Positions 8,356-63,244 are shown, counted from the first letter of the stretch. The stretch: 64,000 nucleotides of DNA from Candidatus Omnitrophota bacterium (GCA_903884815.1 CAISGE010000015.1:22958-86957); one strand, 5' to 3'. Translations and numbers: made by a program. Notes: generated from the sequence alone by a model not told the origin.

Positions 8356-8386
8356 AATTTATCTAAGAAATTAACGCTTCCTTGGG

Positions 8387-8462
8387 CACAACGCGCAACG
8401 GTCAACGTTCAACGTCAGGACTCAAATTAAGTACGTTGTGCGTTGCGCGTAGTGCGTTGTGC
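8387..8462. repeat. heptamer-periodic palindromic element (HPE) copy 1, intra-operon nuoC|nuoD
   Basis: Left arm CACAACG CGCAACG GTCAACG TTCAACG, a loop, then right arm CGTTGTG CGTTGCG CGTAGTG CGTTGTGC. Confidence 0.75.
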
Positions 8463-9779: not shown

Positions 9780-9796
9780 TTTTAGTAAGGAGTCTT

Positions 9797-9858
9797 GAGT
9801 ACGGAGTACGGCGTTTTTTCGTTGCGCGGACCGCCGGTCGCCTTACGCCGTACGAGGT
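9797..9858. repeat. HPE variant (GAGTACG GAGTACG GCG ... CGCCGTACGAG), intra-operon nuoB|nuoA
   Basis: Read directly. Confidence 0.65.
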
Positions 9859-10293: not shown

Positions 10294-10404
10294 GCGGGAA
10301 ACGTGGAACCGGGAACGTTGAACGTTTAAAAGGACGGAAAAGGGGACTGTCCCCGTTTTACTTTGTTGATTTGTTTTCCGTTTGTCGTTACCCGTTCCCC
10401 GGTT
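10294..10404. repeat. HPE copy 3 with an embedded terminator-like central hairpin
   Basis: GCGGGAAACG TGGAACC GGGAACG TTGAACG, then AAAAGGGGAC-TGT-CCCCGTTTT, then CCGTTTGTCGTTACCCGTTCCCCGGTT. Confidence 0.7.
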
Positions 10405-10919: not shown

Positions 10920-11012
10920 AAGATTTCTCCTGAGGAATGACGCGAAACCCCTGTCTGGTGATTCGTCATCCACCTGCTAAAACTGTAGCACGAATTCAGA
11001 AAGGGGGGAGAC

Positions 11013-11091
11013 GGGCGGGAAACGTGGAAGGGTGAACGTTGAACGATTGAAAGAAGCGGGTGATGCCTCCGTTAACCGTTCCCCTTTTTTT
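11013..11091. repeat. HPE copy 4 in the divergent region between pilin paralog 1 and the GT-C-like gene
   Basis: GGGCGGGAAACG TGGAAGG GTGAACG TTGAACG ... CCGTTAACCGTTCCCC T7. Confidence 0.7.
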
Positions 11092-11169: not shown

Positions 11170-12726
11170 GTGAAAACCCGACATTTGTTTTTATCTTTAA
11201 TGGCTGCTCTGGTTTACGCCTTCGGTCTCACCCCGACTCTCGACCCGGACATGGGGTGGCATTTGGGGACCGGGGAGTGGATTCTCCAACACGGGTTTCC
11301 GAGGACGGATCCTTTTTCCTTCACCGTGGCCGGCCATTTTTGGACTGCTCACGAATGGCTTTCCGAGGTGATCATGCGTCGCCTGTATGGTTTGGGGGGA
11401 TATCCGGCGATGATGATCTCTTTCGCTCTTGTGGGTGTGCTGGTCTTTGGCCTTGTCTACTGGACCTGTCCCCGGAGGCCGTACATTGCCGGGGCCCTTG
11501 CTTTTTTCGCCCTTCTGACGTCCCGTTTTCTCTGGGGTGCCCGCCCGCAGATCTTCAATGTCCTGATGATGGCCGCCTTTCTTCTGCTGATCCAGGGCGT
11601 GAGAATGCGTCGTTTCCACTGGAAGTTCCTCTACACGCTTCCTTTGCTCGTCATGATCTGGGTAAACCTTCACAGCGGGTACCTGCTTGGGCTTGTGGTG
11701 ATGGTCGCTTTTTTGACGGGAGACCTCTTCCAGATCTTTGTACTCCATTCAGAAGAAGGGACCTTGGGAGAAAAAGGTTTGGCGCATTTTTCGGGAATTT
11801 TAATTTTGTGTCTGGCCGCAGTGGGGATGAACCCTACGGGCTATAAGATCCTTCTCTATCCTTTCGAGACCCTTTCCAGCAAGATCATGCAAACGACCAT
11901 TTTGGAGTGGCAGTCGCCGATCTTTCAGCATTGGAACTACTGGCCTTTTCTCGGCGTGATGTCGCTTGGGGCAGCCGCATTTTTACTTTTTCCGCCCAAA
12001 CGCAATATCGCCAATTTTCTGATCTACGCGGGATCCATGGCTATGGGGCTTTTCGCCCGCAGGCACATCCCTTTTTTCGCGGTCGCTGCGATCCCGATGA
12101 TCGCGCTGGCCGTGAGCGAGGGGTTTCCCGTTCCTGCCTGGGTGAACCGGGGGAGTGATGTTGCTCTGACGCAGACCGCAAGAACGTTCCGCTATCTTTT
12201 GAACGTGTTTTTTGCGATGGTCATTTTGGTGGGTGTCTTTTCCTGGACGGGGTATCGCTTGAATCATAATCCATCCGCGATGGAAAAATCATTTCCGGTC
12301 AAGGCGTTCCAATTTATCAAGGGCAATGGGGCTATTGCCCGGCTCAGGATCTATAATGAGTACGTCTGGGGTGGGTACCTGATCTGGAACGGTTTCCCGG
12401 TTTTCATGGATGGGCGCGCGGACCTTTACGGGGGTAAATTCTTTTTCGATTACCTTTTCGCGCATGATCTGCGGGGAGGGGCGGTAGGCATTACGCGCTA
12501 TCTCGACAGCTATGGTGTCGACGGGATCCTCGTTCCTCCGGGAGGAATTTTGGGGAATGCTTTTCTCTCGAATCCGGAATGGCGGCTTGCCTACCGGGAT
12601 TCCACCGCCGTTTTATTTCTTCGCAAGGTGCCTTTTTCCGTACCTCCCGTGACCCAGAGTCCGGAGCGTTTCTATTCGCCGCTGAAAAGTAATAATCTTG
12701 AGGGGCCGAGGCGCCCTCATTCATGA
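11170..12726 (+). CDS. polytopic membrane protein, GT-C-like (unknown function), paralog A
   Basis: GTG start chosen to align with paralog B (24 aa before the DPDMGWHL loop). Many TM helices. C-terminal soluble domain with NEYVWGGYLIWNGFPVFMDGR. Confidence 0.55.
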   Translation: MKTRHLFLSLMAALVYAFGLTPTLDPDMGWHLGTGEWILQHGFPRTDPFSFTVAGHFWTAHEWLSEVIMRRLYGLGGYPAMMISFALVGVLVFGLVYWTCPRRPYIAGALAFFALLTSRFLWGARPQIFNVLMMAAFLLLIQGVRMRRFHWKFLYTLPLLVMIWVNLHSGYLLGLVVMVAFLTGDLFQIFVLHSEEGTLGEKGLAHFSGILILCLAAVGMNPTGYKILLYPFETLSSKIMQTTILEWQSPIFQHWNYWPFLGVMSLGAAAFLLFPPKRNIANFLIYAGSMAMGLFARRHIPFFAVAAIPMIALAVSEGFPVPAWVNRGSDVALTQTARTFRYLLNVFFAMVILVGVFSWTGYRLNHNPSAMEKSFPVKAFQFIKGNGAIARLRIYNEYVWGGYLIWNGFPVFMDGRADLYGGKFFFDYLFAHDLRGGAVGITRYLDSYGVDGILVPPGGILGNAFLSNPEWRLAYRDSTAVLFLRKVPFSVPPVTQSPERFYSPLKSNNLEGPRRPHS

Positions 12727-18485: not shown

Positions 18486-18554
18486 GCGCAACGGTCAACG
18501 CTCAACGTGAAACATTTTTTTAATCGTTGTGCGTTGTGCGTCGTGCGTTGAGCC
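18485..18554. repeat. HPE copy between the AsnC-like gene and thiC
   Basis: GAGCGCAACG GTCAACG CTCAACG TG ... CGTTGTG CGTTGTG CGTCGTG CGTTGAGC. Confidence 0.75.
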
Positions 18555-19971: not shown

Positions 19972-21045
19972 ATGAAAAAACAAAATACGATCCTCAGGAA
20001 AAAAACGCGGGCGGTCAAGGTCGGAAAATTGATCTTGGGGGAGGGTCACCCCATTCGTATCCAGTCCATGACCAAAGTCCACACCAAGGACATTCGCGCG
20101 GTTTTGGAGCAGATCGCGCGGCTGGAGCAAGCGGGTTGCGAGATCGTGCGCTGCGCGTGCCCCGGCGAAGAAGACGTCAAGGCGCTGGGGAAGATCAAGG
20201 CGAAAATCAAGATCCCTCTCGTGGCGGACATTCATTTCAATTACCGGTTCGCCCTGATGGCGATCGATGAAGGTGTGGATAAACTCCGCCTCAATCCCGG
20301 CAATATCGGCGACAAGGATCGCGTGGCCGAAGTCGTGGAAAAAGCAAAGCGTCACCACATCCCGATCCGGATCGGGGTCAATTCCGGCTCGCTTGAAAAA
20401 GATCTGATGGAAAAATACGGGCCCACGCCCGAAGCCTTAGTCGAGAGCGCGCGGCGGCATGTTGCGATCCTTGAGGCGCTGGATTTCCATGACACCGTGA
20501 TCTCGCTCAAGGCGACCGATGTTCCGACCATGATCGAGGCCTATCGTCTCGCGAGCCAAAAATTTGATTATCCTCTTCATCTTGGCGTCACCGAAGCCGG
20601 GACTCTGATGCGGGGCAGTATCTATAACGCGATCGGTGTGGGGACGCTTTTGCAAGAGGGGATCGGTGATACGATCCGCGTGTCACTCACGGCGGATCCG
20701 GTCGAAGAAGTGAGGGTTGCGCGGATGATTCTGGAGTCACTCGACCTTCGCGAAGGCGTGCGCGTCATCTCCTGTCCGACTTGTGGGCGCACCGAGATCG
20801 ATACCGCGAAGCTGGCTCAGGAAGTGGAGGCTCGCGCCATGCGGCTCAAAGGGCCGCTTACGATCGCCGTGATGGGATGCGCGGTCAATGGTCCCGGCGA
20901 AGCCCAGGGTGCGGATTTCGCGATCACCGGCGGCCAGAAAAAGGGCATGATCTACGTCGCCGGGAAACAAGAACGCGTGGTCGACGAAGCGCATCTTGTT
21001 GATGAATTGTTTAAAGAGATCGAGAAAAGACAGGGCAACGGGTAA
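19972..21045 (+). CDS. ispG: 4-hydroxy-3-methylbut-2-enyl diphosphate synthase
   Basis: ISCPTCGRTEID and MGCAVNGPGEA Fe-S motifs. About 357 aa. Confidence 0.9.
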   Translation: MKKQNTILRKKTRAVKVGKLILGEGHPIRIQSMTKVHTKDIRAVLEQIARLEQAGCEIVRCACPGEEDVKALGKIKAKIKIPLVADIHFNYRFALMAIDEGVDKLRLNPGNIGDKDRVAEVVEKAKRHHIPIRIGVNSGSLEKDLMEKYGPTPEALVESARRHVAILEALDFHDTVISLKATDVPTMIEAYRLASQKFDYPLHLGVTEAGTLMRGSIYNAIGVGTLLQEGIGDTIRVSLTADPVEEVRVARMILESLDLREGVRVISCPTCGRTEIDTAKLAQEVEARAMRLKGPLTIAVMGCAVNGPGEAQGADFAITGGQKKGMIYVAGKQERVVDEAHLVDELFKEIEKRQGNG

Positions 21046-21100
21046 CGGGGAATGCAAAACCCGGAATGGCCTTTCGTCCTTCCACGATAGGAATGCTCAA

Positions 21101-25120: not shown

Positions 25121-25196
25121 CGTACAACGAGAAACGGGCAACGTGCAACGTTAAAGCCGAAGCTTTTTCGTTGTCCGTTGAACATCGTACGTTGAC
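25121..25196. repeat. HPE copy between the ADH stop and the EamA start
   Basis: CGTACAACG AGAAACG GGCAACG TGCAACG ... CGTTGTC CGTTGAA CATCGTA CGTTGAC. Confidence 0.75.
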
Positions 25197-34813: not shown

Positions 34814-34890
34814 CGCGGGCAAGGGGGAACGGGGAACGCCAAACGTTTTAGATATTGTTCACAGTTTGCCGTTGCCCTTCGTTTTTTATT
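34814..34890. repeat. HPE copy between convergent genes
   Basis: GCGGGCAAGG GGGAACG GGGAACG CCAAACG ... GTTTGCCGTTGCCCTTCG T6. Confidence 0.65.
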
Positions 34891-38334: not shown

Positions 38335-38617
38335 AGCACTTCTCCTTTCAAAAGAAGACCAGACTGCTCTTCCGATCATCATCGTCAACCACCCGCAATA
38401 ACTATAGCACATATCCGGAGAATGGGGGGGGAGGCGGGTAACGGAATCAAGGGGGTTATTCGGCTCCCCCGGGCCTCGATCCTTCCAGTACCGGACACTC
38501 TCCGGAGTCCCTGGCACTGGAACTTCTTCGGAAGACGGGGTATTGCGAAGGGGGTTATTCCGCATTTCCCGTTTCCCGTTCACCCTTCGTTTCGATTGTG
38601 CTACAATCCCGCTCCTT

Positions 38618-47348: not shown

Positions 47349-47546
47349 ATGGAACAGAAAATTATGAAAAACAGAAAAACGCAGATCGAAGCAAGCAATG
47401 GAAGCTACAACCCGGAAATGTTTCCTTGCCGCTCAGGGGACGCCGCGAAAAAATATCTGACGAACTCATCTCTTAGCTGGAGCCCCGCAAACGCATCCGC
47501 CGTTTCGGGGCAATTCAAATTCTCAAAGGGGGCTCGAAAAAAATGA
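47349..47546 (+). CDS. small basic ORF (65 aa) translationally coupled (ATGA) to the giant gene; may not be real
   Basis: MEQKIMKNRKTQIEASNGSYNPEMF... Stop overlaps the start of the 1394-aa gene. AT-rich codon usage. Confidence 0.25.
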   Translation: MEQKIMKNRKTQIEASNGSYNPEMFPCRSGDAAKKYLTNSSLSWSPANASAVSGQFKFSKGARKK

Positions 47547-50500
47547 AGACCATCCAGGCAAATAAAGTCATCGCGATCACGGTCGCGCTCAGTCTGGCAT
47601 TTTTCCAGATCGTCCCTGCCGGACTTGCCGCGGGGAAGACTAATCCCAGCGATTTGACTGCCCAGACGGGTGTGTCCGGTTCCGTTGATCCACTGGCCAA
47701 AACACAGGTGACGACACCGGCCGTGATTCCCGCCAATTTTTTGATGCACACAGGAGGGATTACTAAGGCGACCCCAACGACGATCCCGACGGCTGCCACC
47801 GTTGCCACGAATCTGTCGAGCAGGATCCCGGCTACGATCCGGGATTATGTCACGAAAGTTCAGGCCTTAGGATTCAAGGTAGAGGTAAGCGCGATCGCTA
47901 AAACTCAACCTCCGCAATATATCGTCAAGATGACTGATACGAAAAACTATGCCGTCACGCCGGTGGGGAACGTGAAAAGCGCCAGCATCACTCTGTTTGC
48001 CGACAGCACAGGGACTCTGCAGGTCCTTACGGAAAAGATCACCGTGACTTGCTACAGCGCCAAAGGCGGAGACACCCAGGTGAATGGCGAGCTTCTCTAT
48101 GAGGGCCTCCGGCAAATATCGGCCCAGCCCGCGTTCACCATGCTTCAGGTCAAAGTATCCAATAGCACAACCTCGGGCATGATGGTGACTTACCAGGGCT
48201 ATCAATACACGATCCAGCAGAGCAAGGACAAAAAGGTCACGACGGTCACTCCGATGATGCCCCTCGCCGTGACGAATCATATTACCTCGCTTCAGAATGC
48301 TGCGACCGGTTATACCGTGACCGCGGCTTACATCCCGGGGACTCATCCGCCGCAGTACCAGGTCGATGTCTCGGATAACAAGGCGTACTATGTTGCCCCG
48401 GTAGGGCCACTTTATGCGATGAGCTATATCCTCAGAGGCGACGGAATCGTGGACTCGAAATCCGTTTCGGCTGCGTATTACGGAATCCAGGATGACGCGA
48501 AAGTCGTCGGCCCGCTGCTTTACGAGGCGATGGGCGTCTGCCCCGAGGGACAGATATGCAAGATGGTGGCGACGAGTCCGATCGACCTTCTGAAGACACT
48601 GACGACGATCAGCGTTACAAAGGTCGAGACAAGCCCGATCTACACGGTCCATTTCACAACCACAGACGGAAAGTATTACAAGACCTACCGCGACGCGGCC
48701 GGGAAAGTGATCGTGATTGATGAAGTGGAGGCTTTACGCGCCCAGATTATGGCAAGCACCACGGCGGAGATCGTAAAGGTCATGGCCGAGCTCGCGGATC
48801 ATGAGGCAAAGCTTGCGCTTCAGCTTGCGGAATGGGAAAAGAATGTCACCCAACTGAAAGCGGATCTTGCGGCGGGGCGGGGGAACGCGGACGCAATCAG
48901 CGGGGCGGTCACGAGCTATCTGGATCAGGCAGGCGTCAGCGATGCTCTGAAAAATGAGATTCAGGGATATCTGACAAGGAGCGGAAGCTTGCTTGACGGG
49001 CTTAATGCCGCTGAAGAACAGTACGCGGCCTTTTTGAAGACGGGGGCCCGGACGACCGGGCTCGCGATAGACAACGCGAAGGCCTATCTTGCGGCTCTCC
49101 AGAATCACGAGGGGAAGGTCTCGGCCGCAAAAACAACCGAGGAATTAGCGTTGCTGACAGACCTGCCCGCCCGGAGGGCGCGGATGCCCAAAACAGTGAT
49201 GCCTCCTCCGGTGGAGGACCCGCGACTTGCTCTGAATGCGCTCGTCGAGGAAGGGAAGCTGTTAAAAGAAAAGCTGGAGGCCCTTCCGCCTCTCGCGGTC
49301 CGGGTGTTTTCGGCCCAGCTGAATACACTGCTGAACCCGGCCGGTGCAAAGAGCTTCAATATCACGGAACCGGCATTGCAGGCTGACGGGACTTATCTCG
49401 TAACCGTCAGCGACGACATTTCTCACTTGATCACGCCAACAAGTGGTTTTGAGAAAATGAGTTTCAACGTTGACGTGACGGGCAAGCTCATCCCCGCTTC
49501 GCTCGATGCTTCCTATTACGGCATCAAGCAAGTGGTCGACGGACAGCTGCTTTATGAAGGGATGAAGCTTATGGAAGAAACAGGAACCCCGGAGGGTGCG
49601 GAGGTCCGTGTCCTGGCCCGGATGGCGGCAGTCAGTGTCATCGCGGTGGTTGGTGACGCGATCTCTTTTTCTCTGACTGGAAAATATTACAAAATTTTCC
49701 GAGATGCGAATGAGCAGGTGAAGCTTGAAGCGGTGCAGACTCCGGTTACCCCGAAAATCTCTGATCAGCCCACTGGAAATCCAGAGCCGCCTCCCGCTCC
49801 GCCCGAGAGTAGTGTGGATGTTGCCACGATGCCTTTTGGGGACGGGGCAGTGGCGATCGTCAAGATCACCGATTTCCCAAGCAACAATGTTTCTTATTTC
49901 GCGAAGATCAGGGACACGAATGGCGTGGTGATCAAACAATATCAGATCGATCGCGGGGACTATACGCCTTCCGTCAGTAATTCTTCTTACGGAACTTATT
50001 ACACCTTGGCATTCAAAACCGTGGATGGAACCAGGGTCACGGTCCAACAGCTCTCAACAAGCACACCGAGCAGCACCATCGATGAAATGACCGTCGTCAA
50101 TTTCACAGGGATCGGGGATGTGTACGTCACGCAAAGTTATTCGCTCTCCCCTCAAGGACAGTGGGTCGAAACCTCTTACTCCCCAAGTTATTTTAAGACA
50201 GAAAGTGTCTGGAGTTCCAGATATAGCAGTTTGGTAAGCGTGCAATCGACTTACGTCATGGGGCCCAACGGTCTCGTCGTGAGGAACAAGAGCATCTATC
50301 CTTATTCCTATCCGGGCGGTGTTTTCACGTATCCGTTTATTCAGGAGATTACCTATGTGAATGGAGTCGCAGCCCGCGCCTCTATTTACGGATCGAATGC
50401 AACTTCGCCGGCCAATTACCTTTATTTCGACGGGTCGAAGGTCTCCGTGACCCTGGCAAGCGGTGCGCGGCAAGACTATCTCCTGAGTTCGCCGTCCATA

Positions 50501-51727
50501 GTGGAGGATTCCGAAGGTTTTGTGACGATCTCCGCGGACACAACGGTGAACGGCAAGAATTACAAGATTCAATTTGATAATGCCGGCGAGATTACGCTTT
50601 ACGAATACCCGGTTTTCGGGATTTCGGCATCCACCAAGCTCGGAGGAGCGGCCAATCTTTGGGTGAATGTCGGCGGGGATGGGAACGCAACCGTAGTCCT
50701 GGACGGCAACACCTACGCAGGGATCTTTGATCCGGTCACTAGATCGGTCTTTCTCTCCATCCCCGTCACTGGTGATGTACCCGCGCGCGAAATTTTCTTT
50801 GATTTCGAGAATGTGGACGGCGTGTACAGTCTGGTTTCTCTCTGGGATGCGACACTTTATTCAGCTTCCCTTGAAAGTGATCATGTTTATATGTTTAGGA
50901 GGGGTGAGGTGGTCCAGACGGTAGAGACGGAGGAATATTATTGGTACTTGTACACAAACAGCGTCCTGGAAGGCCAAGTTCTCCCATTGGGCGCGTATAA
51001 GTATGTGGATTCGATCACAGGCCGGAATGTATCCGGATCCATATTGTTGGTAAGTTCCGGAGACATCGCGCTGCCCCCCCCGACACTTCCCGATCAGGAG
51101 AACCTCCAGATCGTTCCGGACCCCTCGGGAGAAGGCTACCAGATCGAAGGGTCGGGTGTCATGGCCGGAGAGTCTTACGAGATCACGGGCCACGCCAGCG
51201 GAACGGATCCGGAAATGATCGGTATCCTGCTGACTTTTCGAGATGCCCAGGGACGTGTTGATCGGGAGGTCATGGAAATGCGAAGGCGAAGTGATGCGTC
51301 ATCCGAAGTGAACTATAATGAGATAATTTACTCGTTACCTACGGATATGACTTTCGAAGCAAGGCCCGCGACTGTCCCTTCCCCTGGCACAATTTCCCAG
51401 GATTATTCCGGAAATGTGCCTGTGTCAACCTGCGCTATATGTACGATTTCCACCGAAATACACGTCGCGGGCGGCTTTTGGGATCCCGTGGATGACTCAG
51501 TGCCAAAACATTCGAGACTTCCGTTTGGGATGCGTAATCCTCTTACCCCGGAACAAAGGCGTGCGGGCCGGGAAGAGTTTTACAAACTGCCCCTCAGAGT
51601 AGTGGCCGGACCTGTCGTCACCGTTGTCGAAGCCTGTCAAGCCGTAAAATCCGGATATAAACAAGCTGCATCGTTTTTTATGAGTGTATTGAAAGAAGCT
51701 GTGCAGAGCCCCACGCTCATTCCCTAA
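47543..51727 (+). CDS. giant secreted protein (1394 aa) with a novel ~90-aa module repeated three times, a central coiled coil, and Ser/Thr/Tyr-rich beta C-terminal half
   Basis: Signal peptide MKTIQANKVIAITVALSLAFFQIVPAGLAA. Repeat signature PPQY...YYG...G.LLYEGM at aa ~101-190, 247-330 and ~585-671. AAGGGGG RBS. Confidence 0.7.
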   Translation: MKTIQANKVIAITVALSLAFFQIVPAGLAAGKTNPSDLTAQTGVSGSVDPLAKTQVTTPAVIPANFLMHTGGITKATPTTIPTAATVATNLSSRIPATIRDYVTKVQALGFKVEVSAIAKTQPPQYIVKMTDTKNYAVTPVGNVKSASITLFADSTGTLQVLTEKITVTCYSAKGGDTQVNGELLYEGLRQISAQPAFTMLQVKVSNSTTSGMMVTYQGYQYTIQQSKDKKVTTVTPMMPLAVTNHITSLQNAATGYTVTAAYIPGTHPPQYQVDVSDNKAYYVAPVGPLYAMSYILRGDGIVDSKSVSAAYYGIQDDAKVVGPLLYEAMGVCPEGQICKMVATSPIDLLKTLTTISVTKVETSPIYTVHFTTTDGKYYKTYRDAAGKVIVIDEVEALRAQIMASTTAEIVKVMAELADHEAKLALQLAEWEKNVTQLKADLAAGRGNADAISGAVTSYLDQAGVSDALKNEIQGYLTRSGSLLDGLNAAEEQYAAFLKTGARTTGLAIDNAKAYLAALQNHEGKVSAAKTTEELALLTDLPARRARMPKTVMPPPVEDPRLALNALVEEGKLLKEKLEALPPLAVRVFSAQLNTLLNPAGAKSFNITEPALQADGTYLVTVSDDISHLITPTSGFEKMSFNVDVTGKLIPASLDASYYGIKQVVDGQLLYEGMKLMEETGTPEGAEVRVLARMAAVSVIAVVGDAISFSLTGKYYKIFRDANEQVKLEAVQTPVTPKISDQPTGNPEPPPAPPESSVDVATMPFGDGAVAIVKITDFPSNNVSYFAKIRDTNGVVIKQYQIDRGDYTPSVSNSSYGTYYTLAFKTVDGTRVTVQQLSTSTPSSTIDEMTVVNFTGIGDVYVTQSYSLSPQGQWVETSYSPSYFKTESVWSSRYSSLVSVQSTYVMGPNGLVVRNKSIYPYSYPGGVFTYPFIQEITYVNGVAARASIYGSNATSPANYLYFDGSKVSVTLASGARQDYLLSSPSIVEDSEGFVTISADTTVNGKNYKIQFDNAGEITLYEYPVFGISASTKLGGAANLWVNVGGDGNATVVLDGNTYAGIFDPVTRSVFLSIPVTGDVPAREIFFDFENVDGVYSLVSLWDATLYSASLESDHVYMFRRGEVVQTVETEEYYWYLYTNSVLEGQVLPLGAYKYVDSITGRNVSGSILLVSSGDIALPPPTLPDQENLQIVPDPSGEGYQIEGSGVMAGESYEITGHASGTDPEMIGILLTFRDAQGRVDREVMEMRRRSDASSEVNYNEIIYSLPTDMTFEARPATVPSPGTISQDYSGNVPVSTCAICTISTEIHVAGGFWDPVDDSVPKHSRLPFGMRNPLTPEQRRAGREEFYKLPLRVVAGPVVTVVEACQAVKSGYKQAASFFMSVLKEAVQSPTLIP

Positions 51728-55311: not shown

Positions 55312-55959
55312 ATGCAAGAGATCGAGCGGGAACTGATCGTCAGGGCGGGGGAGGGGGACGCGGGAGCATTCCGGGAGATTTACCGGCGGGCGGCTGGGTA
55401 TGTCTACACCTTGGCGTACCGGGTCGTGAATACCAAGCCTGACGCGGAGGAAGTGACGCAAGATGTGTTCCTGAAGATACACCGGAGTCTTGGTTCTTTC
55501 AAGTTTGAGGCAGCGTTCAAAACCTGGCTTTACCGGATTACGCTCAATACGGCGCTGAATCACGCGAAGAAAAGAAGTCGCGTGACGCAACGCGAAGTCG
55601 AAGAAGTGTTTGAGGATCCGGCTACCGTGACCCAAGCCGATGCCAGGAAAGGTCTCGAAGCGGATGATACGGGGGTGCAATTGAAGGCTCTGCTTGATCA
55701 GCTGAATCCCGACCAAAGGGCTTGCATTGTTTCGCGGGAGATCGAAGGGATGGATTATCAGGGGATTGCCCGAAGTCTTGGGATCAACATCAATACGGTC
55801 CGTTCGAGGCTCAAAAGAGCCCGCGAGACCTTGATGGCCCTCGGGCAGACCCAATTCTCCATCGAAAAAAATGAAGGTCAATTGGGTCAGCCCTGGCAAC
55901 CTTCAGTGAAAAGAAGAGAGAAGCCAGGACAAAAGGAGGTAGTGAGTCATGGACTGTAA
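55312..55959 (+). CDS. ECF (RpoE-like) sigma-70 family sigma factor
   Basis: Region 2 DVTQDVFLKIHRSLGSF...WLYRITLN. Region 4 HTH. 215 aa. Confidence 0.85.
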   Translation: MQEIERELIVRAGEGDAGAFREIYRRAAGYVYTLAYRVVNTKPDAEEVTQDVFLKIHRSLGSFKFEAAFKTWLYRITLNTALNHAKKRSRVTQREVEEVFEDPATVTQADARKGLEADDTGVQLKALLDQLNPDQRACIVSREIEGMDYQGIARSLGININTVRSRLKRARETLMALGQTQFSIEKNEGQLGQPWQPSVKRREKPGQKEVVSHGL

Positions 55960-56446
55960 AAAATTGAAGGACCGTCTTTTGACGGATTATCTCGACAAGG
56001 AGCTTGGAGCGATTGAGCGCGCGAGTGTGGACGGACACCTGGCCGGATGCTCGGCGTGCCGGGGGTTCTTTCGGAATCTTCAAGAGAGTGCTGTTGCGCC
56101 GTTTAAAGGGGTTCCAGAGATCCAACCGGATGAGATCGTTTGGCGCCGCATCCAAGAACAGATTGCGGCGGAAAGTGCGCATGCTTCGGGTGGATTTTGG
56201 GGACTTGTGGATCTTTTAGTATCCCGCTTTCCGTTACCCGTTCCCATGATGCGTGTGGCTTTCGTTACAGCGCTTGTTCTGGTGACTGTGGTGCTCGCGA
56301 GGTGGCCGTCCGGGTCTATACATCCGGCTTATGCCTACGTGGAAGAGCAGATGACGTTCATGAACGAATTGGGTGCCGGCAATACCGAGCTCATGAACGG
56401 AGAGCTGAAGGATTACGAGACTACTTATGAAGAAATAGGCCGTTAA
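55949..56446 (+). CDS. anti-sigma factor (ZAS-type, single TM)
   Basis: HLAGCSACRGFF zinc-binding anti-sigma motif. TM at ~aa 85-105. 11-nt overlap with the sigma gene. Confidence 0.7.
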   Translation: MDCKKLKDRLLTDYLDKELGAIERASVDGHLAGCSACRGFFRNLQESAVAPFKGVPEIQPDEIVWRRIQEQIAAESAHASGGFWGLVDLLVSRFPLPVPMMRVAFVTALVLVTVVLARWPSGSIHPAYAYVEEQMTFMNELGAGNTELMNGELKDYETTYEEIGR

Positions 56447-56447
56447 A

Positions 56448-56476
56448 GGAACTTTTGAATTTAATCTGGGGTCTAA
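56448..56476 (+). promoter_or_regulatory. second ECF-type promoter GGAACTT-N17-TCTAA upstream of the Spy/CpxP-like gene
   Basis: Identical -35/-10 and spacer length as at 55259. Confidence 0.6.
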
Positions 56477-56500
56477 CCAAGTAAAAGGGAGGGAATCAAA

Positions 56501-57016
56501 ATGGAAAACAAACTCACGAAGCTCATAGCGGTTTTAGCAGTTCTTGGGTTGATGGCGACGGGGCCTTTGGCCTATGCCGGATCCGAGGGAGAAGGTCAGA
56601 CGAGTGGAAAAAGCTGGGGACACGGTAAGGGGCAGAGCCCGGATTTTTTCAAGGAATTGAATCTGACCGCGGAGCAGAAGGAAAAGTTGAAGGCCCAGCG
56701 CGAAGGGAAAAAAGATGAGCGTAAGGCACTGCGCGAGCAGATGAAGACGAAAATGCAGGCGCTTCACGAAGCCATCTCCAAGCCGGCGACGAAACGCGCA
56801 GATGTGAACGGGCTTGTCGGCGAGGTGAACGCGATCAAGGGGCAGATGTTCGCCCAGAAGATCGACGGTATTTTCGCGATGAAAGAGGTTTTGACGCCCG
56901 AGCAGTTCGCGAAAATGCAGGCGCAGCACAAGGCTCGGATGGACAAGATGCAAGACGGGAAGGGCAGGCATCAAGGGGGATCTGAAGGCGAGGAACCCGA
57001 GATGGAGAAAAACTAG
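56501..57016 (+). CDS. periplasmic Spy/CpxP-family (LTXXQ motif) protein
   Basis: Signal peptide. Two LTxxQ motifs (LTAEQKEKL, LTPEQFAKM). Confidence 0.7.
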   Translation: MENKLTKLIAVLAVLGLMATGPLAYAGSEGEGQTSGKSWGHGKGQSPDFFKELNLTAEQKEKLKAQREGKKDERKALREQMKTKMQALHEAISKPATKRADVNGLVGEVNAIKGQMFAQKIDGIFAMKEVLTPEQFAKMQAQHKARMDKMQDGKGRHQGGSEGEEPEMEKN

Positions 57017-57067: not shown

Positions 57068-57137
57068 CCCGTGTTTTAGGATGCTTTCTGAAGGGCTTTC
57101 CCGGTGAATTCCAAACAAATCTTTTTTGTCATGCCTC

Positions 57138-58829
57138 ATGGAGAAACCCGTGTTCAAACTTAAGCCTGTCCCTGAGGACCTGCTGTTTCTTTCGTTGATC
57201 TTGGGTGCCGCGGTCCTCATGGCGTGGCCGTTGTTTAGCAATAGCCTCCTCGATGCTCACGATTCGATCGCTTATTATTCAAAAGCTGTCGCCGTCCATC
57301 AGTCCTGGCGAGAGGGCGATTTCCTGGCACGCTGGTCCCCCCATATCAACCAGGGGTACGGCTACCCCAACCTCAATTTCTACTCGCCTCTTTTTTTCTA
57401 CATTGCGGCAAGCTGCATGTTCTTTTTTCCTTTGGTTCTGGGTTTCCACGTTGCGATCTTTGTCTGCCTTTTCCTTTCAGGCGTTTCGATGTATTTCTTT
57501 GCCCGGGAGCTATGGGGCAGACAGGGAGGGTTGTTGTCTTCGGTCGCGTATCTTTTTGCGCCCTATCATGCGTTAGATATTTATATGCGCGCTGCAGTGG
57601 GAGAGGCGACAGCCTTTATTTTTTTTCCGCTGATCTTGTTGGCTTTTTACCGTCTTTCCCGGGGCGTCGTGCTGCGCGATATCCTGATCGGGGTGTTCGG
57701 CGTTGCAGGGCTTTTTCTTTCTCATCCGCTGGCCACTTTCATTTTTCTCCCGTGGGCCGTCGGTTACGGCCTTTTCCTTTGGGCGGCGGCGGGGCGTTTT
57801 GAGGTACGGAAGCTGATGGCGATGGGTTTTGTTTTTGGAGGAGCTCTTTGGGTGACTGCCTATTTTGTACTTCCCTCCATGCTTGAGCAGCCATTCGTTC
57901 ATATTGAAAGATTTCTTAACATTGATTATCGGGAAAATTTTCTTCGTCTGGGGCATGTCTTCTATGCTCCGTGGAAGTTCCGGGGAGCAAGTGCTCGGGA
58001 AGCAATCGTTCCCGGCGAGGTCCATTTATTGGCGGTGTTGGTTCTTCTCCTGTTCTGGAGGAGGATCGTCCTGACAGTGAAAGGAGCCGGACGGCAGATG
58101 CTTTTTTTCCTTGCACTTTTTATCCTGGCGATCTTTTTTACCTTACCCGTGTCTGCCCCGTGCTGGAGGATCATCCCGAAGCTGGCTTATGTGCAATTCC
58201 CATGGCGATTTATGATGCTGGCGGCGCTCTCGCTCTCTTTTTTGTCAGGAGGTGTTATTTGCTTGTTCTCGCCTCGCTTGCGCAAGGTCGCCTTGTTTCT
58301 TGGCTGCATTCTGTTCATTTGTTTCAATCTTTCTTACTGCAGGGTTTTTTATTTGAAGATCCATGAAACGAGATCCACGGAGGCGTATGTCAGGACATTG
58401 AAATCTCATGAATCGGGTGGATTTGTACCGAAGTGGGTTGAAAATGGCAGGATCCTGTCTCCCGCTAAAAAAGTGCAGGTCACCCGCGGGGAGGCGCAGG
58501 TCGTGGAGGAGGGGGGCAGCCCTCTTGACAGACGCTTTCATGTGACCGCCGCGACGCTCGCAACCTTGTGTTTTTATTCCTATTATTTCCCGGGGTGGGA
58601 GGTTTTTGTGAATGGCAGGGCCACAGAGATCTATCCGTCGAATCCTTTTGGCTTGATCCTTTTCAAGGTGCCCCCTGGAGATTCCTCCGTGAGGGTGCAT
58701 TTTGGGACCACTCCTGTCAGGCAATGGGGCGAGATCCTCTCGCTATCTTCGGTGCTCTTCCTGGCGCTGATCATGATCTTCCGGAAAAGAGTCGATGCCT
58801 GGCTGGCCGGCGGCGCCCCTCCTATGTAA
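57138..58829 (+). CDS. polytopic membrane protein, GT-C-like (unknown function)
   Basis: About 13 TM segments, a C-terminal periplasmic beta-domain, then a final TM. Track start 57126 is TTG; ATG at 57138. Confidence 0.5.
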   Translation: MEKPVFKLKPVPEDLLFLSLILGAAVLMAWPLFSNSLLDAHDSIAYYSKAVAVHQSWREGDFLARWSPHINQGYGYPNLNFYSPLFFYIAASCMFFFPLVLGFHVAIFVCLFLSGVSMYFFARELWGRQGGLLSSVAYLFAPYHALDIYMRAAVGEATAFIFFPLILLAFYRLSRGVVLRDILIGVFGVAGLFLSHPLATFIFLPWAVGYGLFLWAAAGRFEVRKLMAMGFVFGGALWVTAYFVLPSMLEQPFVHIERFLNIDYRENFLRLGHVFYAPWKFRGASAREAIVPGEVHLLAVLVLLLFWRRIVLTVKGAGRQMLFFLALFILAIFFTLPVSAPCWRIIPKLAYVQFPWRFMMLAALSLSFLSGGVICLFSPRLRKVALFLGCILFICFNLSYCRVFYLKIHETRSTEAYVRTLKSHESGGFVPKWVENGRILSPAKKVQVTRGEAQVVEEGGSPLDRRFHVTAATLATLCFYSYYFPGWEVFVNGRATEIYPSNPFGLILFKVPPGDSSVRVHFGTTPVRQWGEILSLSSVLFLALIMIFRKRVDAWLAGGAPPM

Positions 58830-58842
58830 GCGCGTTCGTAAC

Positions 58843-58872
58843 GCCCGCTTCTCATTGTGGGCGTTTTTTGTT
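58843..58872 (+). terminator. rho-independent terminator AACGCCCGC-loop-GTGGGCGTT-T6
   Basis: Read directly, 14 nt after the stop. Confidence 0.7.
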
Positions 58873-58886
58873 ATGATACGCCCCCT

Positions 58887-59669
58887 ATGCAGACCTTATC
58901 CCTCAGACAGAACAATATTTTGCGTGGTGTCATCGAAACGCATATCGAAACGACCCAACCCGTGGGGTCCCGTTCGATCGCCGAGAAATATGCCACCTCC
59001 TTTTCTCCCGCGACCATCCGGAACGAAATGGGAGCCCTGGAAGAAATGGGTTATCTTTCACATCCCCACACTTCGTCCGGCCGCCTTCCCACAGACTGCG
59101 GCTATCGTTATTATCTGGATCATACGCCTTTCGAAGATCATTCCGAGGAGTCCCTCAGCCGTCTCAAAAAAGAGCTCGTCCCCGCGGCAAGCCCTCAAAT
59201 GTTGGAGGAGTTCCTCGACCATGTTTCTCTGCTTTTGTCCTCTTTATCCCAGGAAGTTGGATTGACCCTGATGCCCGGCGCGGAAGCGAAGACGTCTTCA
59301 AAGTCGGGCAGGACCCGGCTTGCTTTACAGGGACTCCCTTATATCCTTGAAAAGCCTGAATTCCAGGATGTTCGGAAAGTCCGGAATTTGCTGGGCGTGT
59401 TCGAGGAAAAAGTGACGCTTACCCAATGGGTGCTGACGCACGTTGATTCCGAGCATGTTTCGGTCTCGGTAGGCCACGAGCACTCGCAAGAGGCTTTGGA
59501 AGATTGCTCGATCGTGGCGGCGCGTTATGACGCCGGGGAAAACCGCCGCGGCGTGATCGCGATCCTGGGGCCCAAGCGCATGGCGTACCGGCAGATCATC
59601 CCGCTGGTTTCGCGCATGGCAGTTGTGGTAGGCCATATGTTTGAACGAATGGAGCCCGAAATCTTATGA
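58887..59669 (+). CDS. hrcA: heat-inducible transcription repressor HrcA (short form)
   Basis: N-terminal wHTH LRGVIETHIETTQPVGSRSI. Followed by grpE and dnaJ. Confidence 0.75.
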   Translation: MQTLSLRQNNILRGVIETHIETTQPVGSRSIAEKYATSFSPATIRNEMGALEEMGYLSHPHTSSGRLPTDCGYRYYLDHTPFEDHSEESLSRLKKELVPAASPQMLEEFLDHVSLLLSSLSQEVGLTLMPGAEAKTSSKSGRTRLALQGLPYILEKPEFQDVRKVRNLLGVFEEKVTLTQWVLTHVDSEHVSVSVGHEHSQEALEDCSIVAARYDAGENRRGVIAILGPKRMAYRQIIPLVSRMAVVVGHMFERMEPEIL

Positions 59670-60325
59670 GTCATCACCACAAGAAAAATCATCACGAAAA
59701 ACAGGACGAAGGGAAAAAGATGGCGGAGGACGGCAAGGTCGAGGATGCCGCGGCTTCGCAAAATGGCGGAAAAGTAGAAGTTCCGGCGCAGGAATACGAG
59801 GCGCTTAAGAAGAAGGTCGAAGAGCTTGAAGGCTTGCGAGAAAAATTCTTACTTGCGGCGGCGGATTTCGAGAACGCGAAGAAACGGAACGCGCGCGACA
59901 AAGAAGATTTTATCAAGTTCAGCCAGGAACGGATCCTGAGGGAACTGATCCCCGTTCTGGATAATTTTGAAAGGGCGGTCGGTCACGCGACGACGGCTTC
60001 CGCGAGCGCGACCTCGTATGAGGCGCTGCTGCAGAATTTGAAGACGCTGCTTTCGGGGGTAGAGAGAGTGCAGAAGCAGTTTACCGATGCTCTCAAGTTG
60101 CACGGTCTCAAAAGGGTCGAGACTGCCGGGCAGATGTTCAACCCGCATTTCCACGAAGTGGTTGCCCATGTGCCTGAGGAAGGACCGGAAGATCAGATCG
60201 TCGATGAACTTGAACCGGGCTACACCCTTCATGACCGTCTCCTCCGGGCCGCCAAGGTCCGCGTTCGTGTATCGCCCCAGCCTCAAACGCCCGCTTCCGA
60301 GGAGAAGCAGGAAGAAATCACTTAA
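59666..60325 (+). CDS. grpE: nucleotide exchange factor GrpE
   Basis: FENAKKRNARDKED...ILRELIPVLDNFERA...HEVVAHVP GrpE blocks. Confidence 0.85.
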   Translation: MSHHHKKNHHEKQDEGKKMAEDGKVEDAAASQNGGKVEVPAQEYEALKKKVEELEGLREKFLLAAADFENAKKRNARDKEDFIKFSQERILRELIPVLDNFERAVGHATTASASATSYEALLQNLKTLLSGVERVQKQFTDALKLHGLKRVETAGQMFNPHFHEVVAHVPEEGPEDQIVDELEPGYTLHDRLLRAAKVRVRVSPQPQTPASEEKQEEIT

Positions 60326-60328
60326 AAC

Positions 60329-60396
60329 GCGCTCAACGTGCAACGGGCAACGCACAAAAAAAGAATGTTGCGCGCAGATCGTTGAGCGTTGCGCGA
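60329..60396. repeat. HPE copy between grpE and dnaJ (where dnaK usually sits)
   Basis: GCGCTCAACG TGCAACG GGCAACG CAC ... GTTGCGCGCAGATCGTTGAGCGTTGCGCG. Confidence 0.75.
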
Positions 60397-60409
60397 TTCC
60401 GAAGGAATT

Positions 60410-61501
60410 ATGGCAAAACGCGATTACTATGAAGTGTTGGGTGTGACCAAGGCGTCGGACAGCGAGACGATCAAGAAAAGCTACCGCAAGCTTGCCTTGC
60501 AGCATCATCCTGACCGCAATCCCGGAAATCACGCCGCGGAAGAGAAATTTAAGGAAGCCGCGGAAGCCTACGCCGTCCTCAGCGATCCGGACAAGCGAGC
60601 CCGCTACGACCAGTACGGGCACAGCCTGGGAGGTCAGGGCTTCTCCGGTTTCGAAGGTTTCGAGGATGCCTTTGGCGGCTTCAGCGATATCTTCGGCGAT
60701 CTTTTTGAGGGTTTTTTCGGAGGCGATGGCGGAAGACGCCGCGGTCGCGGGCAGCGGGGTGCCGATCTGGAATACACGGTGGAGCTCGAGCTCGCCGAAG
60801 TTCTCACGGGAAAGACCTTTGATCTGGAAATTCCGCGCAAGGAAACCTGCATTGAATGCCAGGGCACGGGCGCGGAAAAAGGTTCTCGGAAAACGACATG
60901 CTCCGATTGCGGGGGGCGCGGCGAGGTTCGGGTTTCCCAAGGGTTTTTCACGATCCGCAGGACCTGCCCGAGATGCCACGGGGAGGGAGAGTCGATCGAG
61001 AAACCCTGCCAGACTTGTCGCGGAGAAGGTCGCGTCCGGAAAACACGCAAGCTTCAGGTGAAGATCCCAGCCGGGATCGAGCACGGTTCCAAACTTCGTG
61101 TGACGGGAGAGGGCGAGGCGGGACAGGGCGGCGGATCACGCGGCGATCTTTACATCCCGGTGTTGATCAAAAAGAATAAGACCTTCGAGCGGCAGGGGCA
61201 TGACATTTATTGTGAGGTGCTGATCCCGTACACGGTGGCGGTGTTGGGCGGCGAAGTGGAAGTTCCGACACTGACCGGGAAAACGCGGCTTGAGGTTTCA
61301 AGTGGAACTCCGGCCGGCAAGGTGCTTAAGATCAAGGGCGAGGGTGTTCCGGCCTTCGGCATGGAGGAGCGCCGCGGGGACCAATATGTGAAAGTGGATA
61401 TTGAGATCCCGACCAAACCCAGCAAGATCGAGCGCGAGCTCCTGGAGAAATTGGCAGCCGAGCGCAAAGAAAAGATCAGCGGCAAAAAAAGTTTCTTTTA
61501 A
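60410..61501 (+). CDS. dnaJ: chaperone DnaJ
   Basis: J-domain with HPD ([12 protein letters not shown]). G/F region. Four CxxCxGxG repeats. Confidence 0.9.
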
Positions 61502-61507
61502 CCCGAT

Positions 61508-61537
61508 CAATTCCGGGAATTGAATTCCCGGAATTAG
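61508..61537. repeat. perfect palindrome CAATTCCGGGAATTGAATTCCCGGAATTAG (copy 3 of 3) after the dnaJ stop
   Basis: Read directly. Confidence 0.8.
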
Positions 61538-61558
61538 TAGGGTGGGGGAGGATGTGCT

Positions 61559-61990
61559 ATGGAATATTTTGATTATAAATATCGGGTGATTTACGCGGAT
61601 ACGGACCAGATGGGGATCACCTATTACGCGAACTACCTCAAGTGGTTCGAGGCGGGTCGCAATGAATATTTCCGGACGCTGGGATTTCCCTACACGGAAT
61701 GCGAGAAAAAGGGGATCTACCTGCCGGTCGCGGAAGCGCATGTGAATTATCTTTCGCCGTCCACCTACGACGATGACATTATCGTGAGGACCAGTGTCGC
61801 GGAGATCGGGAACAGCACGCTGCGCTTTGAATACCAGGTGATGAACGCGAAGACCCATGTCGTGGTCGCGACGGGATCGACGCTCCATGTGTTCGTGAAC
61901 AAGGCGATGAAACCCTGCCGCGTTCCCGAGGAGATCAAGGCGGTCGTGAAAGAGCACGTGCTTCTCAAAAAGAGATGCCGGTGTAAATGA
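61559..61990 (+). CDS. acyl-CoA thioesterase, YbgC/4HBT family
   Basis: YRVIYADTDQMGITYYANYLKWFEAGRNEYF hotdog-fold thioesterase motif. Confidence 0.8.
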   Translation: MEYFDYKYRVIYADTDQMGITYYANYLKWFEAGRNEYFRTLGFPYTECEKKGIYLPVAEAHVNYLSPSTYDDDIIVRTSVAEIGNSTLRFEYQVMNAKTHVVVATGSTLHVFVNKAMKPCRVPEEIKAVVKEHVLLKKRCRCK

Positions 61991-62063
61991 GACGCGTTCA
62001 ACGCGCAACGCACAACGTGAAAGCTTGAAAAAGCCGTTGAGCGTTGACCGTTGCGCGTTGTGC
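61991..62063. repeat. HPE copy between the thioesterase and gpsA
   Basis: GACGCGTTCAACG CGCAACG CACAACG TG ... CGTTGAG CGTTGAC CGTTGCG CGTTGTGC. Confidence 0.75.
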
Positions 62064-62101
62064 CAGTGAATGTGAGAATGCCTCGAAAAGGAAAGACCAA
62101 G

Positions 62102-63139
62102 ATGCCTAAGAATATAAGAGTATCCGTGATCGGCGATGGCGGTTGGGGGACGGCGCTTGCGCTCGTGAATCTTCGACGCGGGAATGACGTCATGATCTGG
62201 TCTGCCTTCCCAGAATACGCCAAAGTTCTCATGAAAAAACGCGAGAACGTCAAATTTCTGCCCGGCGTGAAACTGCCGAAAGCCCTGTGCGTGACGTCCG
62301 ATCTTAAAGAAGCCGTGGTATTCGGCGATGTGCTGGTGCTGGCCGTGCCGTCGCAATTCCTCCGGCATGTCCTCCTGAAACTGAAAGGTCTTCCGTATCA
62401 GAAAAAGATCCTGGTCAGCACTGCCAAGGGGATCGAGAAAAAAACGTGCCTGCGGCCCTCCCAGATTATCCGTGAGGTGCTTGGGCAAAAGGTTCGGATC
62501 GTCGCGCTCTCCGGTCCTTCTCACGCCGAAGAAGTCGCGCGGAATATCCCGACGCTCGTGGTCGCGGCCTCAGACGATGCCGCCAGCGCAAAATGCGTTC
62601 AGGAATATTTCCGTGATCCGAAATTCCGTGTCTATGTCCAGAAGGATGTGACGGGCGTGGAGCTCGGAGGCGCGCTCAAGAACGTGATCGCGATCGCCGC
62701 GGGGGTCTGTGACGGCCTCCAGTTCGGGGACAACACCAAGTCAGGACTTCTCACGCGCGGCATTTATGAAATGGTGCGCCTCGGCGTTAAAATGGGCGCG
62801 AGCCCGGATACCTTCTTCGGGCTTTCCGGGATCGGCGATCTGATCACGACCTGTTTCTCCAAGCACGGCCGCAACCTTTTTGTCGGCCGCGAGCTCGGGA
62901 AAGGCCGCAAGATCAAAAAGATCCTGGGCGGGATGGAAATGGTCGCGGAAGGTGTCGATACGGCTTTAAGCGCGCATCAGCTCTGCGAACGTGTGGGGCT
63001 CGACCTGCCGATCCTGCGTGAAGTTCACAGTATGCTCTACAAGCACAAGACCCCGGCCGCAGCCGTTGCCTCGCTTCTTTCCCGAACGCCTTACGACGAG
63101 TGGAAGGCGTTCGACCTCACCTCTCCCAAGCGGAAATAA
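62102..63139 (+). CDS. gpsA: NAD(P)H-dependent glycerol-3-phosphate dehydrogenase
   Basis: VIGDGGWGTALA Rossmann fold. GLSGIGDLITTC and KNVIAIAAG blocks. Confidence 0.9.
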   Translation: MPKNIRVSVIGDGGWGTALALVNLRRGNDVMIWSAFPEYAKVLMKKRENVKFLPGVKLPKALCVTSDLKEAVVFGDVLVLAVPSQFLRHVLLKLKGLPYQKKILVSTAKGIEKKTCLRPSQIIREVLGQKVRIVALSGPSHAEEVARNIPTLVVAASDDAASAKCVQEYFRDPKFRVYVQKDVTGVELGGALKNVIAIAAGVCDGLQFGDNTKSGLLTRGIYEMVRLGVKMGASPDTFFGLSGIGDLITTCFSKHGRNLFVGRELGKGRKIKKILGGMEMVAEGVDTALSAHQLCERVGLDLPILREVHSMLYKHKTPAAAVASLLSRTPYDEWKAFDLTSPKRK

Positions 63140-63184
63140 AAAAGGCCGATTCCTTTTCACATCGAAGGAACGGCCTTTTTTTAT
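63140..63184 (+). terminator. rho-independent terminator AAGGCCGATTCCTT-loop-AAGGAACGGCC-T7
   Basis: Read directly after the gpsA stop. Confidence 0.75.
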
Positions 63185-63244
63185 GTTGCCTATCGCAAAG
63201 CTAGCTTTATCCACCTACCACATACTACCGACTGTGTGAGGCTT

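Follow-up and report, generated by a model that had tools for sequence, protein, structure and literature searches.

A dnaK-less hrcA-grpE-dnaJ operon in Candidatus Omnitrophota, its short HrcA and a heptamer palindrome between grpE and dnaJ

The window analysed here, a 64,000-nucleotide stretch of DNA from a Candidatus Omnitrophota bacterium, contains an hrcA-grpE-dnaJ operon in which dnaK, the third gene of the canonical hrcA-grpE-dnaK-dnaJ order, is missing and a palindrome built of seven-nucleotide units lies in its place. A preliminary description of the sequence had raised two possibilities: that the operon was rearranged by the repeat family, or that its short HrcA uses an operator different from CIRCE. 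We asked which history and which mode of control fit this locus and its relatives best. The reading that we favour, and consider fairly probable, is a normal ancestral chaperone operon that would be transcribed into a leaderless mRNA without CIRCE autoregulation, with dnaK located elsewhere, a short HrcA that still reads CIRCE and a palindrome that is secondary. The operon comprises the following features:

58840-58869, forward strand: terminator-like hairpin with T-run, which ends the upstream membrane-protein gene (57126-58829)
58849-58877, forward strand: hrcA promoter called by a promoter scan, TTCTCA, 17 nt, TG-n-TATGAT (extended -10)
58887-59669, forward strand: hrcA, 260 aa, short HrcA with winged-helix and GAF-like domains, central insert cut to about 46 aa
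59666-60325, forward strand: grpE, 219 aa, whose start overlaps the hrcA stop
60329-60395, no strand assigned: heptamer palindrome in the grpE-dnaJ gap, (NNCAACG)x3, A-rich loop, (CGTTGNN)x3-4
60396-60409, forward strand: dnaJ Shine-Dalgarno segment, ATTCCGAAGGAATT, with AAGGA inside a small hairpin of 5-6 bp
60410-61501, forward strand: dnaJ, 363 aa, type I with J domain, zinc-finger domain and C-terminal domain
61559-61990, forward strand: 4HBT-family thioesterase, conserved neighbour downstream of dnaJ
61995-62064, no strand assigned: second CAACG-type palindrome, thioesterase-gpsA spacer
62102-63139, forward strand: gpsA (glycerol-3-phosphate dehydrogenase), last co-directional gene
63140-63185, no strand assigned: canonical bidirectional intrinsic terminator at the convergent gpsA/Toluene_X junction

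In profile searches the identities of GrpE and of the type I DnaJ were unambiguous, and HrcA scored 222.8 bits against TIGR00331 (cut-off 197.2), the match falling into two stretches. The coordinates and identities first assigned to the three genes therefore stand, including the ATG chosen for hrcA. The hrcA and grpE genes overlap by 4 nt (ATGA), and grpE is separated from dnaJ by 84 nt with no dnaK in between, as had been described. An antisense open reading frame of 411 aa (59849-61084) was taken as spurious because it lies opposite the well-supported grpE and dnaJ.

Neither dnaK nor groEL was found in the window by motif search and tblastn, and tblastn together with gene tables revealed no dnaK in any locus of the clade. 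Contig extensions of 10 kb and loci retrieved by the repeat pattern likewise contained no dnaK, groEL or CIRCE; the 10 kb of contig beyond the 5' end of the window carry nuo, thiamine and other genes. The HrcA protein occurs on 31 contigs from metagenomes, the largest of which measures 184 kb. Most of its best 120 homologues are about 242-278 aa long, a few being truncated, and those with a name belong to Candidatus Omnitrophota.

The gene order hrcA-grpE-dnaJ-thioesterase-gpsA was shared by all twelve non-identical relatives (P0005's contig, L215, L183, L004, L006, L010, L210, L008, L211, L212, L213 and L011), whose HrcA proteins are 38-88% identical. It was unchanged at HrcA identities of 87, 79, 76, 65, 58, 55, 48, 44, 42 and 38%, with one extra small gene within the dnaJ-thioesterase-gpsA row of L211 and L213. 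Other Omnitrophota have the classical hrcA-grpE-dnaK-dnaJ operon (L012, L014, L019-L021 and L069; L023 is cut before dnaJ). The three-gene order is also found in L051, an Omnitrophota outgroup with a long HrcA, and in the Ignavibacteria L029, L068 and L078. The layout was thus overstated as unusual, since Ignavibacteria and Thermotoga maritima share it, while the absence of dnaK at this locus is real. An hrcA-grpE-dnaJ operon without CIRCE is an old layout common to the whole lineage and a lineage-typical reduced version of a known system.

That the palindrome lies at the dnaK position of four-gene operons could suggest that dnaK was cut out or moved by recombination between heptamer palindromes, one copy of which stayed behind as a scar. 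The grpE-dnaJ gaps of the deep clade members and of the outgroup contradict this idea. They measure 19 nt in L212, 9 nt in L213 and about 2 nt in L051, which has retained CIRCE, and none of them holds a repeat; the dnaK-less order is therefore older than the palindrome. In addition, five unrelated heptamer cores occur among the species that do carry a repeat, and hrcA-grpE-dnaJ exists in Ignavibacteria and T. maritima as well. With a clade-wide dnaK-less order and repeat-free gaps of 2-19 nt, the proposed rearrangement by the repeat is refuted, and we regard the scar as extremely improbable. The palindrome came later, into a gap where this lineage had never had dnaK. According to the reading that we favour it would have been inserted or expanded secondarily in this short gap, where it would form a stable RNA hairpin and have no part in the absence of dnaK.

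The second peculiarity concerns the operator. CIRCE was searched for as TTAGCACTC-N9-GAGTGCTAA, and the window contained no match at up to 3 or at up to 4 mismatches, in agreement with the initial impression that none precedes hrcA. A relaxed search of the window (spacer of 7-11 nt, up to 6 mismatches) gave a best match of 13/18 and no hit at hrcA or in its vicinity. CIRCE is missing from the stretch between the promoter and hrcA, in which the -10 element is no more than 9 nt away from the ATG. The same holds at up to 4 mismatches for every hrcA locus of the clade. About 250 kb of clade sequence were scanned in total and contained no CIRCE, which says little as only 2-4 sites are expected per genome.

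For comparison we used 78 hrcA loci from outside the clade, taken from a species-representative genome collection. In 49 of these 78 a CIRCE with at most 2 mismatches was located within 260 nt upstream of hrcA. Among the CIRCE-bearing loci were all short-HrcA Omnitrophota with four-gene operons, including L012, L014 and L019-L023, and also L051, where CIRCE is at -52 relative to hrcA. Several loci from outside the clade, among them the Ignavibacteria L068 and L078, are likewise without CIRCE at hrcA. As a side observation, the CIRCE spacers of CPR bacteria, Omnitrophota and Planctomycetia (L012-L089) often embed TTGACA, e.g. TTAGCACTCTTGACA....

Two candidates for a different operator were considered and rejected. 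An inverted repeat AACGCCC...GGGCGTT upstream of hrcA turned out to be the upstream terminator and is not conserved in the relatives. The heptamer palindromes are not the operator either, because their core differs between species while the winged helix of HrcA does not. In the aligned hrcA upstream regions of the clade no alternative conserved palindrome was found.

The HrcA protein itself is short as described, with 260 aa compared to 338 aa for the TIGR00331 profile and for the HrcA of T. maritima. Both ends of the protein are recognisable: the N-terminal winged-helix domain matches PF03444 (23.1 vs 21) and the C-terminal GAF-like domain PF01628 (E = 1e-27). When aligned with the T. maritima structure 1STZ, residues 3-106 correspond to 14-119 and residues 153-231 to 239-311, such that about 46 residues (107-152) replace about 119 residues (120-238) of 1STZ. 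An alignment of long and short forms showed that none of the short HrcAs has the central block of about 95-100 aa, neither those of the clade of the window nor those of other Omnitrophota, of a Planctomycetia MAG and of CPR bacteria. We take this block to be the inserted dimerising domain of 1STZ; the authors of that structure reportedly proposed the central insert as the dimer interface. An AlphaFold model of HrcA based on 32 clade sequences reached a pLDDT of 85 and a pTM of 0.86, and it superimposed on 1STZ with TM scores of 0.77-0.81 (E = 1e-16 to 2e-17).

The alignment to orthologues further showed that the winged-helix signature matches the one found in the 49 HrcAs linked to CIRCE. Both its recognition helix (S40-x-A-T-I-R-N-E-M) and its wing (H-T-S-x-G-R-x-P-T-D-x-G-Y-R) are identical between the 32 clade proteins and the 49 CIRCE-linked ones, the only clade-specific change of the signature being H19 for Y in helix 1 of the winged helix. 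Of the CIRCE-linked HrcAs, 32 are themselves short (225-277 aa); shortness is therefore no sign of a new operator. More generally, insert-less HrcAs of 219-277 aa are common in Patescibacteria/CPR, Planctomycetia and Omnitrophota, where they occur beside a canonical CIRCE (L012-L089).

These data bear on the alternative that the clade HrcA switched its operator or that CIRCE was lost genome-wide, with a different site or new trans targets in its place. No CIRCE was seen in any clade sequence examined, the substitution H19 is specific to the clade, and the central insert, reportedly proposed as the dimer interface, is missing, all of which would fit such a switch. The residues that read DNA are nevertheless invariant and identical to those of CIRCE-linked HrcAs, a perfect CIRCE accompanies insert-less HrcAs in Omnitrophota outside the clade, in CPR bacteria and in Planctomycetia, and the upstream alignments offer only heptamer cores that vary and no conserved palindrome. 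We thus consider a switched operator, the second of the possibilities raised initially, unlikely. The comparison argues instead that the clade HrcA still reads CIRCE, from which we infer that CIRCE sites would be present elsewhere in these genomes. Most likely, the lineage lost the autoregulation of HrcA and kept CIRCE at groESL or dnaK elsewhere in the genome.

How hrcA would be transcribed can be seen from its promoter, which in the clade forms a module together with the start codon. In the window, TATGAT lies at 58872-58877, is preceded by TG and is followed by the hrcA ATG after 9 nt. The -10-like element noticed about 10 nt before the ATG was recovered by the promoter scan (TTCTCA-17-TATGAT). 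Across the clade, a weak -35 element (TTCTCA, TTGAG or TTGAC) and a T-run are followed by TGnTAT(C/G)AT, and then by 6-9 pyrimidine-rich nucleotides up to the ATG; there is no Shine-Dalgarno sequence. The module is kept in L004, L006, L008, L010, L011, L210-L213 and L215. The conservation of this arrangement down to 38% HrcA identity supports the near-leaderless transcript that had been suspected. With transcription expected to start about 7 nt past the -10 element, the hrcA mRNA probably lacks a leader or carries one of at most 3 nt, and this would leave no room for an operator in a 5' UTR. The upstream terminator could be leaky, in which case read-through transcripts of hrcA would carry a leader.

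A leaderless first gene may be a frequent feature in this organism. A Shine-Dalgarno sequence precedes 27 of the 37 called genes, hrcA being among the 10 without one. The first gene of the nuo operon of the same genome, nuoA, has the layout TGCCTATAAT-CCCGCCCT-ATG like hrcA and no Shine-Dalgarno sequence; this start with hrcA-like promoter-to-ATG geometry is located at:

about 10950-10975 in the window, reverse strand (2255-2281 in L214): nuoA start

The shared layout of nuoA and hrcA, together with the share of genes that have a Shine-Dalgarno sequence, makes leaderless first genes look like a habit of the organism.

In two relatives the start of hrcA is interrupted. In L183 an element of about 104 nt (2086-2195, reverse strand) is inserted in hrcA codon 2. 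It is bounded by 14-nt terminal inverted repeats that match perfectly (CCCCGTTAGATCTC ... GAGATCTAACGGGG), and 4 nt of the target (TGGA) are duplicated. The former leaderless ATG now starts a mini-ORF of 8 codons, and HrcA restarts at a GTG made of the element end and the target duplication. A related insertion of greater complexity is present at this point of hrcA in L210, and several homologues begin with V-E-T-L-S.

A promoter directly in front of hrcA also matters for a further alternative, in which hrcA shares a transcript with the ECF-sigma, anti-sigma, LTXXQ and membrane-protein genes that precede it and is controlled further upstream. These genes are indeed co-directional with hrcA, and the ECF sigma/anti-sigma/LTXXQ cluster is syntenic in several relatives. 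However, a hairpin followed by a T-run lies in between: the stem of this terminator (58840-58865) is followed by TTTTTT and overlaps the -35 region of the hrcA promoter. Moreover, the promoter-ATG module is kept in L008 and L211-L213 despite an FtsH-like upstream neighbour, and the 58 kb upstream contain no CIRCE. Co-transcription with control from upstream is accordingly very unlikely.

Several observations were made on these neighbouring regions. Directly upstream of hrcA, at 55312-57016 of the window, there is a cluster coding for an ECF sigma factor, a zf-HC2 anti-sigma factor and an LTXXQ/Spy-like protein. Envelope-stress-type clusters of this kind (ECF sigma, anti-sigma and 1-3 LTXXQ periplasmic proteins) are found upstream of hrcA in one sub-clade (L004, L006, L215); the deeper sub-clade (L008, L211-L213) has a gene for an FtsH-like protease and a gene of about 455 aa in its place. 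Further upstream, at 47543-51727, the window codes for a 1394-aa protein with no Pfam match, and an RHS-repeat protein of 3475 aa is encoded just beyond the window end (L001 16536 onward). At the positions of these two open reading frames the relatives have giant proteins of 4400-10500 aa.

In the reading that we favour, hrcA-grpE-dnaJ, probably on into the thioesterase gene and gpsA, would be transcribed from the sigma-70-type extended -10 promoter. The transcript would be leaderless and have no CIRCE operator, so HrcA would not repress its own operon, and dnaK would be located elsewhere in the genome. HrcA would belong to the widespread insert-less form with an unchanged CIRCE-reading winged helix and most likely represses a CIRCE-bearing groESL, and perhaps dnaK, at other loci, a reduced regulon as in Desulfovibrio.

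Known systems provide parallels for this arrangement. Compared to the canonical operon with CIRCE (Bacillus type; Geobacter; Omnitrophota L012, L014, L019-L023 and L069), the order of the orthologous hrcA, grpE and dnaJ and the DNA-binding signature of HrcA are shared, whereas dnaK and CIRCE are lacking here, as the 5' UTR would be. According to work cited in a review, T. maritima has hrcA-grpE-dnaJ, groESL and dnaK-sHSP as separate operons. The three-gene order with the three genes contiguous is the same as here and the HrcA fold matches 1STZ, but T. maritima has a long HrcA of 338 aa with the central insert, and the promoter without CIRCE, predicted to be leaderless, is a feature of the present locus. 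In Desulfovibrio vulgaris and D. desulfuricans CIRCE is found only at groESL, which is the HrcA regulon's sole constant member (Rodionov et al. 2004, PMC545781). Desulfovibrio thus shares an hrcA that is not itself preceded by CIRCE; the differences are that CIRCE at groESL is documented there and would only be expected here, and that sigma-32 is also used there.

Taken in this way, the locus documents, for a phylum that has been little studied, an HrcA system reduced in three respects: the repressor has no central insert, the operon has no dnaK, and autoregulation would have disappeared along with the entire 5' UTR. Such a case helps in annotating Omnitrophota genomes and in defining HrcA regulons by the presence of CIRCE. 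That insert-less HrcA is common and compatible with a canonical CIRCE also bears on HrcA dimerisation. The locus overturns nothing that is established. The behaviour of the heptamer palindromes is the more intriguing lead, and it leaves the verdict on dnaK unchanged.

The 84-nt spacer between grpE and dnaJ had been described as one copy of a heptamer palindrome. It consists of 3 nt, the palindrome and 14 nt that include the dnaJ Shine-Dalgarno sequence, and the palindrome is built as follows:

60329-60352: left arm, GCGCT-CAACG-TG-CAACG-GG-CAACG
60353-60366: loop, CACAAAAAAAGAAT
60367-60395: right arm, GTTGCGC-GCAGAT-CGTTGAG-CGTTGCG-CG

For the spacer as RNA, the computed folding energy is -31.6 to -34.4 kcal/mol, with z = -2.5. 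Across the window we counted the core pair CAACGNNCAACG 17 times, compared to 0.16 times expected. We found five CAACG-type elements with 3-4 units per arm, all in short gaps between co-directional genes:

about 8386-8450 (4051-4156 in L214): between nuoC and nuoD, complex I operon
about 18486-18545: heptamer element
about 25125-25190: heptamer element
60329-60395: grpE-dnaJ gap
61995-62064: thioesterase-gpsA gap

One of the elements lies between nuoC and nuoD, so the elements sit inside operons, and the family tolerates or prefers intra-operon gaps. None of the five is followed by a T-tract, and a terminator scan of 60326-60409 was negative; the palindrome at 60329-60395 is followed by ATTCCGAAGG with no T-run. 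The heptamer palindrome is thus not an intrinsic (Rho-independent) terminator, unlike the element at the gpsA/Toluene_X junction, which has an A-run, a GC hairpin and a T-run and a matching architecture in L004, L006, L008 and L210. In a search of 58600-62200 no Rfam family was found at E <=1.

In the grpE-dnaJ gap, heptamer palindromes were present in seven species with five different cores:

CAACG: window and L183 (550-625)
GGGAC: L004 (11472-11524)
GGATG/CATCC: L210 (11455-11510) and L215 (7446-7505)
GTACGG: L008 (11420-11484)
CGAAA: L011 (about 11439-11560)

The thioesterase-gpsA gap also carries heptamer palindromes in several species, again with differing cores. Further palindromes in orthologous gaps are located at 13105-13127 in L004 and at 9095-9120 in L215. 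The DNA of L183 is 80% identical to that of L004, yet it has another core, and in L215 two neighbouring gaps differ, with CATCC in the first and CGTTG in the second. The palindrome of L006 is a decayed copy, and L010, L211, L212 and L213 have none. One site is thus reused while the sequence turns over, which a simple passenger model does not explain.

This recurrence speaks for the alternative that the hairpin of the spacer is under selection as an intercistronic control element. It would make dnaJ independent of hrcA-grpE, for example because it shields the upstream mRNA segment against 3' exonucleases, attenuates transcription in part or covers the ribosome-binding site of dnaJ. The hairpin would have been kept at the site while its sequence was repeatedly replaced by the dominant heptamer family of the genome. 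The spacer is occupied in the window, L183, L004, L008, L011, L210 and L215 with five cores; the loci of the relatives (12-21 kb) have just 0-3 elements of this kind overall, and the spacer palindromes are mostly strong hairpins (z -2.5 to -6.2). A view of the palindrome as a pure passenger, which is part of the reading that we favour, fits poorly with a heptamer hairpin that recurs in one spacer of many species. On the other hand, the palindrome is missing in L010 and L211-L213 and decayed in L006, and the family also occurs between nuoC and nuoD, two genes for which expression at different levels would serve no evident purpose.

The small hairpin next to the palindrome also bears on this alternative. 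At 60396-60412 the sequence ATTCC-GAA-GGAAT places the dnaJ Shine-Dalgarno sequence in the 3' arm, and the counterpart in L183, ATCCCGAAGGGATT (ATCCC-GAA-GGGAT), has a compensatory change that keeps the pairing. Such a hairpin could hide the ribosome-binding site or act as a sensor of temperature. It is limited to the window and L183, which makes it weak evidence, and absent from L004, L008 and L215. Overall we consider a selected control element possible but doubtful.

A broader version, which we put forward with greater hesitation still, is that the grpE-dnaJ and thioesterase-gpsA gaps are a maintained slot for a heptad-periodic hairpin. If true, there would be selection for the periodic structure whatever its sequence or, alternatively, targeting or gene conversion would overwrite the slot with the current heptamer family of the genome. 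A maintained slot would imply a cellular machinery that makes or reads palindromes of 7-nt periodicity. Such a machinery might be widespread because CAACG elements are common in soil metagenomes and similar elements occur in Xanthomonas and cyanobacteria.

A metagenome scan with the palindrome pattern returned at least 120 loci (L090-L209), mostly from unrelated soil organisms, and one further hrcA locus (L183). Among the matches listed, the CAACG palindromes were mostly of the form (Y)CCAACG x3-5, loop, CGTTGG(R) x3-5, with a G+C content of 46-73%. The CAACG-type element class thus reaches far beyond Omnitrophota.

In Xanthomonas, GGGAATC-type heptameric repeats have been described at 186 sites, usually with four units and with 70 inverted pairs; they are mostly located between co-directional genes and are not linked to transposases, and heptamer repeats (STRR) of Nostoc and Calothrix are related to them (Rehm et al. 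2015, PMC4692102). Dispersed 7-nt units, convergent pairs able to form stem-loops and the intergenic location are shared with the present elements, and the L004 core GGGAC(T/C)N resembles GGGANTN and GGGGA(C/T)T. The Xanthomonas repeats differ by their G-tract units, for which G-quadruplexes were considered; since the CAACG core is without G3-4 runs, this idea of Rehm et al. is not applicable here. The Xanthomonas and cyanobacterial repeats also belong to other phyla, whereas the present lineage has several core types side by side, which take each other's place at orthologous spacers. The REP/BIME elements of enterobacteria are dispersed imperfect palindromes in operons that fold into hairpins as RNA and can make the mRNA segment upstream of them more stable; they are not known to show a 7-nt periodicity and are associated with RAYT transposases. 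Dispersed palindromes inside operons are common to both, and the elements of the window differ by their 7-nt periodicity.

In addition to the five palindromes, the window contains single-arm or variant heptamer runs at 9790-9812, 10305-10327, 11027-11048, 21032-21055, 34816-34846 and 38557-38589. Their types are GAGTACG x2 (the core type of L008), (G/T)GAACG, GGGAACG and TTCCCGT, and they may be decayed or nascent elements.
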